Shown here: positions 1,381 to 48,738 of the stretch, piece after piece | How positions within the stretch are numbered: the stretch's first letter is position 1 | Layout of the letters: each line of letters starts with the position of its first letter | NCBI GenBank assembly: GCA_043739785.1 | Contig: JAYUDN010000024.1 | Coordinates: 3,535 to 67,534, forward strand | Direction of reading: 5' to 3' | Length of the DNA: 64,000 bases | From: Candidatus Altimarinota bacterium | GTDB lineage: Bacteria > Patescibacteriota > Gracilibacteria > BD1-5 > UBA2023 | Position numbers and translations under genes: made by a program | The notes under the pieces: model-generated | The model's input: only the letters and a program-made list of their open reading frames with translations | Databases searched by the model: none | Told to the model about the DNA's origin: nothing

Positions 1381-1418
1381 TGGAGAGATACTAGTAGCCA
1401 GTAAGAAAATAGTGTATC

Positions 1419-1816
1419 CGTCATTCTGAGCTTGCGAAGAATCCAGATTTCTATTATATTATGAATAAACATGGTTATGTTTACATTCTAGCCAATAAAA
1501 GAAATGGTACTCTGTATATCGGTGTTACCTCTGATATACATTCATGAATATTTCAACATAAAAATGATTTAATTGAAGGATTCTCCAAAAGATATCAAAC
1601 GCATATTCTGGTGTATGTAGAAACTCTTTCATTTATCACTGATGCAATAATGAGGGAAAAAAGTTTAAAGTGAATTACAAGGAATCGAAAAATTGAACTT
1701 ATTGAATCCATTAATCCTCATTGGAATGATCTCTCTGAAAAGTTATAAAACTGGATTCTTCGTACCCCAAGGGTACTTCCAATGCTTCGCAAAGGGGCGT
1801 CCTCAGAATGACGAAG
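1419..1816 (+). mobile_element. GIY-YIG cassette bracketed by inverted GTCATTC..GAATC-type repeats
   Basis: Left arm CGTCATTCTGAGCTTGCGAAGAATCCAG (1419-1446) and right arm CTGGATTCTTCG..CCTCAGAATGACGAAG (1751-1816) are reverse complements. The right arm carries an extra GTACCC/GGGTAC hairpin. The arms enclose a small nuclease ORF between dnaN and pheS. Confidence 0.5.
1461..1748 (+). CDS. GIY-YIG nuclease family protein (95 aa, two in-frame TGA)
   Basis: ATG 1461 to TAA 1746-1748. MNKHGYVYILANKRNGTLYIGVTSDIHS-G-IFQHKN matches the GIY..YIG signature. The gene is absent from the standard-code track because of TGA at 1545 and a second TGA. Confidence 0.7.
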
Positions 1817-1855
1817 TCAGAAGCTCTTACTTATTACTGTACTAACTGTTGCTCT

Positions 1856-3039: not shown

Positions 3040-3858
3040 ATGTCACACTTAACCTTTCGGGAATACGTCGAATCTCAGTGAAGAACACTGAGTGCTCCTG
3101 CCTTCCTCTGAGGGCAACAGAAAGCAGAAGACTATGATACGCTCAAGCTCAAGTACCTCCAAACGGGAGGGAATTCCGATCTCCTCGCTTTATCAACCGA
3201 TATTGAGATAAATGTTGCGTTATCAACCCTATGGAGTGAGAAAATAGCGAATATTAAACCTAAATTGTTCAAATCAGAGTACTGACTCTTTGAGGAATTT
3301 CTCAAGCACTTGGCCCTCAATGTGGGCGACCTCTTCAAGGCAGATAAACTCGCGAAACTTCTCGGATCCTCAAGACGAAAGGTCTATAAATATATGGAAA
3401 TCCTTGAAGCCGAATGAATGGTGCTTAGGCTTCATCCATTTTATGAAAACACCGAGACCGAACTCTCTCGTCATGAAAAAGTGTACTTTAGCGATCTCTC
3501 TATTCTCCATGCGATCCTCGGACCGATCTACTACTTCGGAGATACCAAGAAGGGGATTCTTGAGAACTTCGTCTTTCTCGAACTTCGTCACAAGCTCGAT
3601 GCGAGTCATGAGATATTTTTCTATCGGAAGAAATCGCAAGCAGAACTGAGTTTTATCCTCAAGAATCATGAGCACAACCTCCTGACGCCCGTCGATGTGG
3701 TCGTCCGCTCTACTGATGCGGTTTCTCAAGCGGTCAAAACCTTCGATGCAACTTACCATGATCGAGTCGAGCACTATATGATCCTCGATGAGCATACCGC
3801 TGCCCAGAAAACCTACCATGAAACGGCAGTATTCTTCTTACCACATATTGCGATATAA
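3040..3858 (+). CDS. DUF4143-domain protein, the C-terminal two thirds of an AAA+ ATPase with no Walker A region
   Basis: ATG 3040 joins track ORF 3418..3858 in frame across four TGA codons. LTFREY.., ..KVYKYMEILEAEGMVLRLHPF.. and ..KVYFSDLSILH..ENFVFLEL resemble the DUF4143 part of AAA_14/DUF4143 ATPases. No P-loop coding sequence lies upstream. Confidence 0.6.
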
Positions 3859-7654: not shown

Positions 7655-7689
7655 AACCTTTCACCTTCACCCTTTAACTTTCAACCCCC
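7655..7689. repeat. Pyrimidine-rich heptad tandem repeat abutting the atpA start
   Basis: aaCCTTTCA CCTTCAC CCTTTAA CTTTCAA CCCCC, followed by gcatATG at 7694. Confidence 0.6.
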
Positions 7690-9549: not shown

Positions 9550-10458
9550 ATGCCATCTGGTAAAGAAATAAAATCTCGAATCAAATCAGTCAAAAATACA
9601 GGGAAAATCACGAAAGCGATGGAACTTATTTCGACGGTAAAGATGAAAAAAGCACAAGAAAGTGTCGTCGGACTTCGTCCATTTGCTTTGGCGGCTCTGG
9701 AGATTCTCGGACGAGTCGGACACTCCACCGAAACCTTCGGTATATTTTCTCAGACTTTTCCAGAAAGTAAAAAAGAAATCATCATCATGGTTGCAGCCCA
9801 AAAGGGACTCTGTGGAGGATACAATATGAACGTGTTCAAGAAAGCGACCGAGTATATCCGAGATGACAACGATGTTCCATTTACTCGTCACTATGACTAT
9901 GTCGCTATAGGAAAGCGAGCTCGAGACTTTATCCTGCGTACGGGACAGTCTCTTATTGTTGATTTCTCGGATGAGATGAAGGATCCTCTCACTCAAGCAG
10001 AAACCCGAAGAATTGTACGATTCCTGATTAGTGAGTGGAAAACCGAGAAGTATTCGAAGATTTCAGTCGTCTACAATCACTATGTTTCAGCGATCAACCA
10101 AGTCCCGACTATTAAGCCTATTTTTCCTATTGTACGAGAAGATATTGTTGCGTTTCTTGAGAAAGTGACACCGGGTGTAGCACATGATTTCAACTCGACT
10201 GAGTATACGATCGAACCGAGTCACGAAGTAATTCTTGAATCTGTTATCCCGCTTATCCTCGATACGATGCTCCACGAAACCCTTCTCGAAGCAAAAGCGA
10301 GTGAGCACGCGGCTCGAATGGTCGCGATGAAAAATGCGAAAGATAGTGCCAATAAAAAGGCCACTTCCCTGACCCTCGTCTACAACAAAACTCGTCAAGC
10401 TGCTATCACGAAGGAAGTTTCTGAAATCGTGAGTGGAGTCGAGAGTATGAAGGATTAG
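9550..10458 (+). CDS. atpG: F0F1 ATP synthase subunit gamma
   Basis: An intact 302-aa ORF. It starts MPSGKEIKSRIKSVKNTGKITKAMELIS and ends ..RQAAITKEVSEIVSG.., both typical of gamma. Confidence 0.9.
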   Translation: MPSGKEIKSRIKSVKNTGKITKAMELISTVKMKKAQESVVGLRPFALAALEILGRVGHSTETFGIFSQTFPESKKEIIIMVAAQKGLCGGYNMNVFKKATEYIRDDNDVPFTRHYDYVAIGKRARDFILRTGQSLIVDFSDEMKDPLTQAETRRIVRFLISEWKTEKYSKISVVYNHYVSAINQVPTIKPIFPIVREDIVAFLEKVTPGVAHDFNSTEYTIEPSHEVILESVIPLILDTMLHETLLEAKASEHAARMVAMKNAKDSANKKATSLTLVYNKTRQAAITKEVSEIVSGVESMKD

Positions 10459-10639
10459 ATGGTTTATAGATTGATATTTTGAGTGATTATTTCACCTTAC
10501 TGTGAAAATAAGAGAGATTTTATTCTGTCTGCTCCAAAAGCTAGAGTAGGTTTTCATTATCAAGTCTATTTCTTATTTCTGTCATTTTCACGACATTTTC
10601 GTCAGACTCTGAAGAAGGAACGATATAGAGTGAAGAAAA

Positions 10640-10669
10640 CTGGATTCTTTGTGCCTCAGAATGACGAAG
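10640..10669. repeat. Solo copy of the GTCATTC..GAATC-type element
   Basis: CTGGATTCTTTGTGCCTCAGAATGACGAAG closely matches the reverse complement of the left arm of the GIY-YIG cassette (1419-1446). It lies in a 470-nt non-coding gap after atpG. Confidence 0.6.
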
Positions 10670-23354: not shown

Positions 23355-23361
23355 AGAGTAG

Positions 23362-23382
23362 AGTTATGAGTTATAAGTTATA
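23362..23382. repeat. AGTTATR x3 heptad array abutting the moxR start codon
   Basis: AGTTATG AGTTATA AGTTATA on the plus strand. On the moxR mRNA strand this reads TATAACT TATAACT CATAACT, followed by CTACTCTATG. Confidence 0.6.
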
Positions 23383-23536
23383 CGTATGAGAAAAGCAAGA
23401 ATTGATAAGAAGACAATTTTTATGAAAGTTGTTATTCTCCAATCTCAAAGGGATCCCTCGGGTACTTCGGGTTGACCATATTTATAAGAGATTATATAGA
23501 ATATATCACATCCTGCAAACGAGAAAGTTGGTATTT

Positions 23537-25066: not shown

Positions 25067-26368
<1,302 letters not shown>

Positions 26369-29441: not shown

Positions 29442-29839
29442 AGAATTGAATCCTGTGAAGCACTTTCCGTCAGAAAAAGAAAAATACTCTCAAACTGAAA
29501 AACGAGAGAAGGGAAAGAAGAAAGCTTGCCAAGAAAAACCAGAAGAATCAACAAATTCCTCAAAAAAAAGAAAGAGTATGAACCAAAATGAAATGAAGTT
29601 TTTATTAAAACTTGCTTTTATATTTTTTTCTTTATAATACCGGCATTGCTTCACCCATACAGATGAGTTTTTCCCGTGGTGAGGCGAAGTGTGGTCCATC
29701 CCGAGTCTTCGGGAAGTTTTGGGCGTATAAATAACTCTCGGTAGGGCTACTGAGCGTTTTATACCATTCGAGTTCGGAATTGAGAAATAGAATGGAATAG
29801 CAGATTTTTTTCCCTTTTCACAAAGAGAATGCAATCTTG

Positions 29840-29867
29840 ATTCTTCATTCGTCATTCTTCATTCCCT
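29840..29867. repeat. ATTCTTC-type heptad array in the rpoB leader
   Basis: ATTCTTC ATTCGTC ATTCTTC ATTCCCT. This is the reverse complement of the GAATGAA/GAATGAC heptads found inside tgt. It lies 40 nt upstream of the rpoB ATG. Confidence 0.65.
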
Positions 29868-33660: not shown

Positions 33661-33745
33661 AAGTTCTCAAGTTTTCAAGTTCTCAAGTGAATCACTTGAA
33701 CCAAAACTTTGAACCTCCAACTTTATAACTTTTAACTAAAAACAT
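33661..33745. repeat. Octamer array plus an imperfect inverted copy in the rpoC leader
   Basis: AAGTTCTC AAGTTTTC AAGTTCTC AAGTGAAT, then CACTTGAACCAAAACTTTGAACCTCCAACTTTATAACTTTTAAC. The palindrome centre is TCAAGTGA-A-TCACTTGA (33683-33699). The array ends at the rpoC ATG. Confidence 0.65.
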
Positions 33746-39447: not shown

Positions 39448-40224
39448 ATGACCGTTCGAATCCATCCATCTTGGCAGAGAGTATTGGCTCCAGAGTTTGA
39501 CAAACCGTACTGGAAAGAGCTTACCGATTTTGTAAAAAATGAATATTCACAATATAGCTGTTTTCCGATCGGGAAGGATATTTTGCGTGCCTTCGATATG
39601 ACCCCATTCGAATCGGTAAAGGTCGTCATCCTCGGACAAGACCCATATCATACAGCGTATACGGTTGAAGGTTGAAAGTTGAAAGTTAGAGGTTGAGAAA
39701 GTTTGAATAACTCTCAAGAAGAAATTGGAATGCTTTCGCTTTCAGAACAAGAAATGATAGAGCAGTATCCAAAATATGCGGCTATGGGGCTTTCCTTTTC
39801 GGTGCCGAGTGGTTCGAAATCACAACCCAGTCTCACCAATATTTTCAAAGAACTACAGAGCGATCTTGGTATCACTCGAACCAATACGGATCTATCTGAC
39901 TGGGCAGAGCAGGGAGTGCTCCTCCTCAATGCGGTCCTTACCGTTCGATCTGGAGAAGCCGCTTCTCATCAAGGGAAAGGATGGGAAATTTTTACGGATA
40001 TGGTCATTCGACAGCTCTCCGAGAAACGAGAGGGGATTGTTTTTATCCTCTGGGGAAAGTATGCCATCTCGAAATCCTTACTTATCGATTCGTCCAGACA
40101 TTACGTACTCACGAGCCCTCATCCTTCACCATTCTCGGCTTATACGGGATTTTATGGTTCGAAACCCTTTTCAAAAGCCAATACCTACCTCGAAAAAAAC
40201 GGGAAATTACCTATAGCATGGTAA
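39448..40224 (+). CDS. ung: Uracil-DNA glycosylase (family 1) carrying a roughly 40-codon in-frame insertion
   Basis: Track ORFs 39448..39675 and 39703..40224 share one frame. ..[10 protein letters not shown] is followed by [insert], then [51 protein letters not shown]... Confidence 0.85.
39652..39780 (+). other. In-frame repeat-containing insertion within ung
   Basis: The insertion lies between GQDPYH and the A.GL.FSV block, which are normally about 5 residues apart. It contains heptads GGTTGAA GGTTGAA AGTTGAA AGTTAGA GGTTGAG (39663-39697). Both of the gene's TGA codons (39673, 39694) lie here. Confidence 0.6.
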
Positions 40225-43649: not shown

Positions 43650-43798
43650 AAGAGGTGATAATCTACATCATTGTAGCTTGAAATATGGGAAGTCAATTTC
43701 CGTTAGCTTATCTGGTATAGTTAGTATTTTTCTCTTCTTCTGCAGCCTACTTAGAATGGAGGAAATCTCAGGAACTTTTTTGTAAGGAATAAACCACT

Positions 43799-44014
43799 CT
43801 GTTTCTACTGTATCTTTCATGGAAGTGAGGCAAGATCAATAGCTTCAGCGAGTTTACCACGAAACATCTTTCTTGGTGCTTCTGGTAATGTATATTGTAG
43901 ACAAATCTGTTTCTACTGTATCCTTCATGGAAGTGAGGCAAGATCAATAGCTTCAGCGAGTTTACCACGAAACATCTTTCTTGGTGCTTCTGGTAATGTA
44001 TATTGTAGACAAAT
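43799..44014. repeat. Direct tandem duplication, 2 x 108 bp with one mismatch
   Basis: Unit CTGTTTCTACTGTATC[T/C]TTCATGGAAGTGAGGCAAGATCAATAGC..GTAGACAAAT occurs at 43799-43906 and again at 43907-44014. It duplicates the 3' end, including the stop codon, of the 43913..44197 gene. Confidence 0.85.
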
Positions 44015-44197
44015 CTGGTGTATCCAAGCTCTCACACGTTCTGGGAGAGGAGCCTCAATCAGGCGCATAGTTTCTCGAACCTTTGCGATTACTCGAGGCT
44101 TCAAATCTTCTATTCCATCCGATTCTGCTTGTTCCGATACTATTCTTTCGACATCGAGATAATGAAAGGGTTCTCGGACTTCATTGCGTATAGACAT
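43913..44197 (-). CDS. Hypothetical protein, paralog of the 43308..43649 gene
   Basis: Track ORF 43925..44197 reads through TGA 43925-43927 to TAG 43913-43915. Confidence 0.5.
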
Positions 44198-48284: not shown

Positions 48285-48324
48285 AGTTTATAAGTTTTAT
48301 AGTTTTAAAGTATTACAGTTTTAC
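48285..48324. repeat. AGTTTTAN x5 octamer array abutting the DUF2130 gene start
   Basis: AGTTTATA AGTTTTAT AGTTTTAA AGTATTAC AGTTTTAC on the plus strand. On the mRNA strand these read as TAAAACT-type units ending at the ATG. Confidence 0.65.
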
Positions 48325-48738
48325 AGGATGACAATTTGAAATTATTATAGTGATTTTTTATGTGAGATGAGTCAACCAATCATTTTGATAATTTCTGTGA
48401 TTTCTTCTTGCAGAGACAGTGCTACTGTTCCAGACATGTAGTGAAGCCTCTCAGCAATAATAATCTGTGTTTCTATTTCAAGTGCTGATCATTTTGCAAT
48501 AGAGAGAAATCGTATATATTCTGGCTCGCTTCATCTTCCGCTTCCCTCCGCGATATTACTCGGTATAGAGATACTTGCTCGACGCATTTGGTCTGAGAGA
48601 CCATAATTCTCAGATTTTGGAAATCATTTTGTGACAGTATAGGTGTTTTCGACAAAATCAATTGATTTCTGCCAAACTTTCAGATTTTTATGATATGAAG
48701 TATTTTCTGTCATGGTCAATCAAAATACTACTAAATTG

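Follow-up and report, generated by a model that had tools for sequence, protein, structure and literature searches.

An in-frame insertion beside the water-activating loop of a Gracilibacteria uracil-DNA glycosylase, at a codon that carries palindromic repeats in related alleles

In-frame intragenic copies of repetitive extragenic palindromic (REP) sequences were described by Di Nocera et al. 2013 (PMC3733652), and many of them lie in DNA-repair and tRNA-modification genes. The CGTC-type REPs of that study are mostly inverted dimers and were equated with the dRS3 repeat of Neisseria and with the elements RPE-4 and RPE-6 of Rickettsia. Rickettsia palindromic elements (RPEs) are also found in frame in genes (Ogata et al. 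2000, as summarised in PMC10969869), and in the accounts given by these sources REPs and RPEs are selfish palindromes that enter housekeeping genes in frame and add 20–80 residues while the protein remains intact (PMC3733652; PMC10969869). The present analysis concerns the gene ung, encoding a uracil-DNA glycosylase (UDG), in a stretch of 64,000 nucleotides from Candidatus Altimarinota bacterium (Patescibacteriota; Gracilibacteria; BD1-5; UBA2023), namely positions 3,535–67,534 of the forward strand of contig JAYUDN010000024.1 (assembly GCA_043739785.1); this whole stretch is called the window below. The insert found in this gene is most likely an intragenic REP/RPE-like insertion in a new lineage, located beside a catalytic motif and readable through stop-codon reassignment, and as such it is unusual and not unprecedented.

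A second related system is formed by the Neisseria NTS repeat (CGTCATTCCCGCGMAVGCGGGAATCYRG) and the related SRM repeats, which flank small GIY-YIG genes (ssnA). These genes encode site-specific nucleases that cleave single-stranded DNA close to the repeat, and the NTS-ssnA-NTS unit is built like an insertion sequence (Chenal et al. 2025, Nat Commun, PMC11893778). As for the enzyme, the insertions reported for family-1 UNG proteins are those of mimivirus (motif I; PMC5538708) and of gamma-herpesviruses (Leu-loop; PMC5934625), which, in the parts of these papers devoted to them, are 7–17 residues long and structured and leave the enzyme active. Like the window insert, they place extra residues inside the catalytic domain near the active site. 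As located in the same sources, they lie at or after the Leu-intercalation loop, whereas the 39 residues of the window protein follow the water-activating loop and are predicted to be disordered. A limited search of the literature found no description of a UNG insertion after the water-activating loop.

The ung gene occupies positions 39448–40224 of the plus strand (ATG at 39448, TAA at 40222–40224) and comprises 258 codons when TGA is read as glycine. Its product matches the Pfam UDG family PF03167 with E = 1.3e-15 and is 60–78% identical to its orthologs, and the nearest named relatives are metagenome-assembled genomes of Candidatus Gracilibacteria. The closest sibling is GL52_DN_metabat_56 (78–80% amino acid and 81% nucleotide identity to the window ung), which was also the sole Gracilibacteria return of a contig scan of genomes with the ung protein. 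The water-activating loop GQDPYH (motif as defined in PMC5538708) corresponds to codons 63–68. The sequence AMGLSFSV, which starts at codon 112 and contains the stacking Phe of GLxFSV, and the uracil-binding LLLN motif are both present and are invariant among 52 aligned orthologs. The minor-groove intercalation loop has the variant HPSPFS, with Phe for the Leu of HPSPLS, the Pro-rich loop is a variant in place of PPPPS, and LWGK stands in place of the GS of the Gly-Ser loop; all three variants are common to the entire ortholog group. The structure was read from an AlphaFold2 model of the sibling protein (P0001, 78% identical), standing in for the window protein. The UNG core of this model is confident, and its TM-scores against solved UNG structures are 0.86–0.88. 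By its predicted fold and catalytic motifs, the product is a family-1 UDG.

The segment between GQDPYH and AMGLSFSV (39652–39780, plus strand) spans codons 69–111, that is, 43 codons (129 nucleotides (nt)) against four in the insert-free orthologs, in which GQDPYH is followed by T-P/A-G-A; most orthologs are 219–220 residues long. The net excess is therefore 39 codons (117 nt, about 39658–39774). It contains five tandem heptads, GGTTGAA GGTTGAA AGTTGAA AGTTAGA GGTTGAG, at 39663–39697 of the plus strand. Tandem Repeats Finder reports 39663–39696 with period 7, 4.9 copies, 77% matches and score 40, a modest value for so short an array, and the heptads span only the first 35 of the 117 extra bases. 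The translation agrees with the first-pass annotation of this DNA, which had proposed an interval of 43 codons at these positions, the presence of both in-frame TGA codons of the gene in the five heptads and, on the evidence of the frame and of the selection on the core given below, an in-frame insertion in the catalytic core of an otherwise intact UDG.

Over 977 nt that include the heptads, the window sequence agrees at every position (100%) with an independent assembly, Logan SRR23617215, so the insert is no assembly artefact. The window and the sibling have inserts of equal length with no indel across the 129-nt segment, and the insert length is also equal in two assemblies of the sibling type. 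In comparison with the sibling, the core of ung shows a ratio of nonsynonymous to synonymous divergence (dN/dS) of 0.11–0.14 at dS ~0.8, indicating purifying selection, whereas the insert shows a near-neutral dN/dS of about 0.8–0.86 (~0.8 for codons 86–110). Since the length is kept over dS ~0.8, the core is under selection and the assemblies agree, the insert is a real and stable part of an intact gene, and a decaying gene is excluded. The same data answer two objections that had been raised in advance to the insertion. The ortholog alignment gives no conserved lineage-specific loop, in view of the dN/dS of ~0.8 and of the patchy presence described below, and no frame-breaking copy-number variants were found in the sibling or in the independent assemblies.

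Inserts at the same site were found in nine other alleles among the 120 best orthologs; they are in frame and 15–50 codons long. Alleles with an insert are referred to below as filled and those lacking one as empty. The insert-bearing alleles were drawn from NCBI, ENA and Logan (not JGI); DNA was examined for the window, its sibling, six further filled alleles and two empty ones. A metagenome scan for DNA encoding GQDPYHTAY gave no match. The filled alleles have common boundary residues, H-T-A | Y ... P-x-[C/Y] | A-A-M-G, and in the alignments the insert follows the Ala codon (GCN) of the turn and precedes its Gly codon; the latter is GGT in empty alleles, TGT in filled alleles and TAT in the window. 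Two alleles, P0027 and P0046, carry a different type of insert directly after His. According to these alignments, the turn after the water-activating loop behaves as an insertion hot spot in Gracilibacteria UDGs. On the contig of P0027 (L066), a tyrosine recombinase/integrase gene is located at 1–1040, directly upstream of the ung with the second insert type. Alleles P0104 and P0107 have another insert of ~45 residues elsewhere, after ..LGITR/..WIKR, so that inserts in these UDGs are not confined to the turn after GQDPYH.

The DNA of the relatives' inserts shows what most of them are. Long imperfect hairpins are present in four of the five shared-boundary alleles read as DNA: P0009 (111 nt, −38.7 kcal/mol, z = −4.6), P0040 (102 nt, −39.1 kcal/mol), P0023 (159 nt, −41.7 kcal/mol) and P0025 (156 nt, −36.6 kcal/mol). 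The fifth insert, in P0002, has 57 nt and folds weakly (−10.4 kcal/mol). The arms of these inserts are formed by CCGTCATYCTGAGGAACGAAGRATCCAG and its complement, arranged as inverted pairs, with a CGTCAT head and an ATCYRG tail. The same head and tail are present in arms of the window located outside ung, at 1418–1446, 1814–1751 and 10667–10640.

The first two of these arms, of the form CGTCAT...ATCCAG, belong to a unit at 1413–1828 (plus strand), composed of an arm (1418–1446, plus strand), a GIY-YIG open reading frame (ORF, 1461–1748) and an inverted arm (1814–1751, minus strand), the latter holding a nested extra hairpin. The unit is recognised by the arm profile in nhmmer with E = 1.8e-10. 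The ORF has 95 codons, two of them in-frame TGA, and matches Pfam GIY-YIG PF01541 with E = 5.3e-10. The 33 nt of 1413–1445 recur without a mismatch in the right arm of the P0009 ung insert. An arm pair devoid of an ORF lies at 10590–10669 on the minus strand, downstream of atpG (which ends at 10458); its right arm is degenerate, an arm with the above head and tail is at 10667–10640, and 10640–10666 shares 25 of 27 positions (92.6%) with the left arm of the P0040 ung insert. The general layout of the arms is C-CGTC-ATTCTGAG...GAAGAAT-CCA-G, with a CGTC tag, a stem starting from AT, a CCA tail and an arrangement in inverted dimers. These features are those of the CGTC-type REPs of PMC3733652, with stem and loop lengths that differ from the four published families; the window ung insert does not belong to this assignment.

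With the NTS/SRM repeats, the window arms share the head CGTCAT(TC) and the tail (GA)ATCYRG, and the layout of 1413–1828 is that of NTS-ssnA-NTS, with a small single-domain GIY-YIG gene that is putatively Ssn-like. In three respects the arms do not, or do not clearly, agree with that system. The published SRM pattern, HGTCWYN(0-2)YYVSBRHN(0-5)WNVSBRGN(0-2)RNCYNB, gave no match in the window and in nine Gracilibacteria loci, because the arm centre is A/T-rich (TCTGAG...GAAGA) and fails at the G/C-rich stem positions. The hairpin of a single arm (ATTCT/AGAAT stem) is weak, about −1 kcal/mol as DNA by nearest-neighbour energies and no better than that of shuffled sequences, and PMC11893778 describes no in-frame intragenic copies. 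A metagenome scan with the arm pattern returned at least 120 loci, which vary widely in composition. Many of the loci listed have a recognisable second arm nearby in inverted orientation, and a GIY-YIG relative is found 0–282 nt from the arm in 4 of the 120 listed. The sequence CUGAGGA in the arms was considered as a hammerhead core and rejected, since its surroundings offer no fitting GAAA or helix arrangement and Rfam returned nothing.

The repeats of the window are found in a genome which, judging from its sequence, reads code 25 with TGA as glycine. In core genes of the window, TGA is a sense codon that is used sparingly (atpA 0, atpD 1, rpoB 1, rpoC 2); the sole atpD TGA sits on the Gly of a conserved block and one rpoC TGA is located within THGxRKG. 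Several ung orthologs encode the invariant Gly of GLxFSV by TGA. The window ung has only two in-frame TGA codons, both inside the heptad array and both conserved in the sibling: codon 76 (39673–39675, plus strand) in heptad 2 and codon 83 (39694–39696, plus strand) in heptad 5. At least one in-frame TGA is present in the insert of every filled allele, and in the pooled filled alleles TGA is 3.4-fold enriched in the inserts (16 of 283 codons inside them, 29 of 1753 outside). The repeat arms themselves hold TGA within CTGAGG and within AATGAC. Because the inserts carry in-frame TGA, the standard code would truncate the UDG; code 25 would thus allow such repeats to persist inside genes in more frames.

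The two TGA codons are also the basis of the view that the segment is not translated at all, being removed like an intron, bypassed by the ribosome, or part of a decaying ung pseudogene. The standard code splits the gene at these codons, and public code-11 calls give products of 75 and 164 residues. In public protein collections the window ung accordingly appears as P0247 (75 residues) and P0003 (164 residues), with the pieces 39448–39675 and 39730–40224, and the sibling gene is likewise split, into 75 and 61 residues. Since the public gene callers used the standard code, ung is split in these collections and looks like a pseudogene. We regard the absence of translation as barely credible, because code 25 is established, the frame lacks TAA and TAG, the length is kept over dS ~0.8, the core is under strong purifying selection, and no intron or ribozyme family was matched. 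In addition, all eight filled alleles read as DNA have inserts whose length is a multiple of three, which is in part a selection effect of working from full-length protein predictions. For annotation this means that a split ung of this kind is in truth an intact gene under selection.

If translated, the extra 39 codons probably form a fast-evolving, disordered loop beside the catalytic loop. In the AlphaFold2 model of the sibling, the predicted local distance difference test (pLDDT) value is below 50 for residues 77–95 and 97–129, which comprise the insert and the flanking PYH and AMGLSFS residues. A loop at this position could in principle be adaptive, kept for an altered behaviour of the UDG such as the blocking of Ugi/p56-type phage DNA mimics or the binding of DNA or a partner, in the manner of an arms race. 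Its location directly after the water-activating loop agrees with this, as do the hypervariable length and sequence between lineages combined with a length kept between siblings. Functional catalytic-domain insertions of other UNGs, as far as the sources on mimivirus motif I (PMC5538708) and the gamma-herpesvirus Leu-loop (PMC5934625) present them, offer a parallel. Adaptation is improbable nonetheless, given that dN/dS ~0.8 fits neutrality, that disorder is predicted by the model, that close relatives lacking the insert indicate that it is dispensable, and that neither an inhibitor gene nor any other context in its favour was seen.

The close relatives also bear on how the filled alleles are distributed. 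When the insert is masked, a neighbour-joining tree of 119 orthologs intersperses filled alleles with empty ones. Core identity is 94% between filled P0002 and empty P0005, which share a gene neighbourhood and 92% of their nucleotides, and filled P0040 and empty P0094 have 86% nucleotide identity. Filled alleles read T-A | Y... even where the empty alleles of their clade read T-P-G-A, so the flanking codons appear to travel with the insert. The filled alleles may therefore have been moved by homologous recombination, or an old insertion may have been followed by replacement with empty alleles. Of these, spread by recombination between ung genes is proposed here as the probable course, since the filled alleles share flanking codons whatever the local empty-site sequence. 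At 39623–39636, 30 nt upstream of the insertion site, the codons GTC GTC ATC CTC GG for V-V-I-L-G resemble the repeat head CGTCATCCT. As an insertion attractor, this mimic (GTC GTC ATC CTC) was rejected because filled alleles such as P0040 do not have it; the resemblance is inconsistent across filled alleles and is probably a coincidence.

On balance, it appears probable that the window insert is a decayed descendant of a palindromic-repeat insertion in which a heptad was amplified by slippage. The 117 nt would then be a translated, weakly constrained loop between the Ala and Gly codons of the turn H-T-A/P-G-A-A-M, a position that in other lineages holds an in-frame inverted pair of the NTS/SRM-like (CGTC-type REP) repeat. 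In the window, the arms of an old repeat copy would have decayed and a 7-nt unit would have been amplified by replication slippage, so that the heptads look like a secondary product in place of the former left arm. The insert would be tolerated because the turn accepts extra residues and because TGA in the repeats and their derivatives means glycine and not stop. The boundaries of the insert are consistent with this account: the left one is GCG TAT AC, as in P0025, and the right one is CCA-NNN-TAT-GC, against CCA-NNN-T(G/A)T-GC in the repeat-type inserts. A possible remnant of the right arm, GGAATGCTTTCGCTTTCAGAACAAGAA, lies at 39721–39748 (plus strand); it matches the profile of the relatives' ung inserts with 1.1 bits, a score reached by 4 of 1000 shuffles, and the match has the expected strand and falls in the part of the model that represents the right arm.

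A number of results weigh against this account. The similarity of the interior is marginal, so descent from the repeat pair is its weakest step: the window score of 1.1 bits is low and the sibling insert does not match the relatives'-insert profile, the arm profile has no match in 39652–39780, and pairwise alignments of the window insert with repeat-type inserts are not significant (z at most 2.1). The insert folds no better than shuffled sequences (z = −0.67 as RNA and −0.01 as DNA), and its translation is deduced from the open, conserved frame. The sample of orthologs came from full-length protein predictions and is biased toward in-frame cases. The neighbour-joining tree is built on ~215 residues, with only two close filled/empty pairs robust. 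As for recombination, a test for co-conversion tracts gave ambiguous flanking-DNA identities, and in nearly all pairs divergence is higher in the 90 nt that follow the site. Finally, codons 69–85 show one synonymous difference from the sibling in 10.8 sites where ~5 are expected from the rest of the gene (a binomial estimate gives p ~0.007, for 17 codons and one genome pair), and pure neutral decay does not predict such conservation.

The main rival to descent from the repeat is an origin by slippage only. Short tandem nucleotide repeats in frame can yield hydrophilic, disordered, fast-evolving surface loops. In this explanation, the insert arose de novo in the lineage of the window and GL52, unrelated to the palindromic inserts, and its boundaries reflect structural constraint. 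The clear heptad array and the lack of significant similarity between the interior and the arms or the relatives' inserts are as expected from such an origin, and the inserts of P0027 and P0046 directly after His show that the turn takes unrelated insertions. Slippage by itself is a possible but rather unlikely source of the whole insert, since the boundary codons match those of the repeat-type inserts at the nucleotide level although the nearest empty alleles read T-P-G-A, the marginal profile match has the correct strand and model region, and the heptads account for only 35 of the 117 extra bases. The locus further differs from ordinary slippage-generated low-complexity inserts in that its site is shared with mobile-repeat insertions, its 7-nt unit is not a multiple of three, and its heptad array is unusually conserved at synonymous sites.

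This conservation deserves separate consideration. The heptad part, codons 69–85, is 92% identical in nucleotides to the sibling, and in the pair of P0009 and P0040 the left arm is 95% identical over 39 nt against 77–83% for the gene (three segments compared). These values point to nucleotide-level constraint or concerted evolution in the 5′ portion of such inserts. The first-pass annotation had noted that the heptads resemble the reverse complement of the heptads in the atpA leader (7655–7689, plus strand), and this resemblance holds: the ungapped alignment has 30 of 40 positions identical, the best value in the window and among 4,702 background windows. When searched with up to three mismatches, the motif RGTTGAARGTTGAARGTT has seven hits against 0.42 expected, of which three are in ung, three in the atpA leader and one, in reverse complement, in the rpoC leader (33705–33722, plus strand). 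Both sequences are short tandem arrays in which the match of one unit propagates, so this evidence is weaker than the numbers suggest. There are, moreover, many leader arrays, and the chance that one of them has a matching unit is not small. The 5′ leaders of many genes, such as those at 7655–7689, 29835–29864, 33661–33735, 23355–23385 and 48285–48330, are G-poor, are devoid of a Shine-Dalgarno-like GGAGG and often consist of short tandem repeats of 7–8 nt. The resemblance between ung and the leaders is statistically real and could reflect shared slippage-prone motifs, common descent from repeat ends, or chance.

One reading of the same facts is that the heptads act as DNA or RNA, as an antisense leader- or promoter-like element, as a protein site, or by pairing with the atpA and rpoC leaders. 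The single synonymous difference in codons 69–85 and the enrichment of the motif in reverse complement in these two leaders would agree with it, and the array is followed on the minus strand, after 11 nt, by an ATG, an arrangement much like that of the atpA leader. This ATG is complementary to the codon for the invariant His, and its presence therefore carries no information. A role of this kind seems very unlikely to us. The sample consists of 17 codons from one genome pair, short tandem arrays may keep their consensus by concerted slippage, and the insert has no called promoter-like site, no Rfam match and no significant fold. The searches of the insert and its surroundings gave the following negative results. 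The promoter scan called no site inside the insert, Rfam gave nothing in the window at gathering thresholds except two tRNAs and nothing in six ortholog loci at E up to 1, and a protein search with the insert peptide returned nothing useful. The insert has no significant palindromic fold and is not multi-copy within 64 kb, where blastn found no further copy of it. Only the heptad motif recurs in the window, in the atpA and rpoC leaders.

The gene tgt (25067–26368) of the same window was also considered. It has an in-frame insert at 25385–25530 (plus strand), ~48 codons located after GGFQVFSLG, with (AATGAAG) x4.4 at 25428–25458. It contains three TGA codons, and its 3′ end, GGAATGACGGAAGCC, resembles the right end of the repeat. 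Against the profile of the relatives' inserts it scores 6.2 bits, which none of 1000 shuffles reached. The heptads (AATGAAG)n contain GAAGAAT, the inner part of the arm, and AGAATGA, the end of the right arm. In Gracilibacteria this site of Tgt is hypervariable, about 10–60 residues, and carries both repeat-type (..DFSTPAAASTRNDK..) and heptad-type (..KNEKWKMKN..) peptides among orthologs. The tgt insert thus resembles a repeat-derived insert more clearly than the ung insert does. The first-pass annotation had regarded ung as a second case, after tgt, of a leader-type tandem repeat embedded in a conserved enzyme. The parallel with tgt stands, and leader-type is not the best description, since the relatives' inserts at the same site that were read as DNA are mostly SRM/NTS-like inverted pairs and the heptads make up 35 of the 117 bases. 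In the rpoB leader, the array corresponds to the tgt heptads in reverse complement and includes the repeat head TTCGTCATTCT.

Compared with the described REP and RPE cases, the relatives' ung inserts fit the intragenic type, and ung and tgt belong to the DNA-repair and tRNA-modification classes, respectively. The window insert is in frame in an intact protein, as in RPEs and in-frame miniature inverted-repeat transposable elements, whereas the palindromic structure and multiple copies typical of these are seen in the relatives' inserts and not in the window copy, which has no recognisable palindrome and carries a heptad array. Two further differences are the host, here a code-25 Gracilibacterium in which the in-frame TGA codons of the repeat are sense codons, and the occupation of one codon of one gene in many lineages, with shared flanking codons and beside a catalytic motif.

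A more far-reaching scenario, which we consider quite doubtful, is that Ssn-associated repeats repeatedly enter, or pass between, the same ung codon in a homing-like manner with the flanks carried along, that the reassignment of TGA to Gly lets these TGA-rich repeats survive, and that decayed copies keep a nucleotide-level function reflected in the synonymous conservation and the complementarity to leaders. Recurrent insertion at the same site with shared flanks would give a testable model for the spread of ORF-less palindromic repeats. The case joins Ssn/NTS repeats, CGTC-type REPs in repair genes and stop-codon reassignment, which were not previously connected, and the reassignment would remove the main obstacle, an in-frame TGA, to repeats becoming protein. 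For protein engineering, it is of use that the UNG turn after the water-activating loop takes 15–50 extra residues in nature.

As a separate observation on repeats in the window, positions 43798–44017 contain 2.0 copies of a 108-nt unit with 99% identity (Tandem Repeats Finder score 433).

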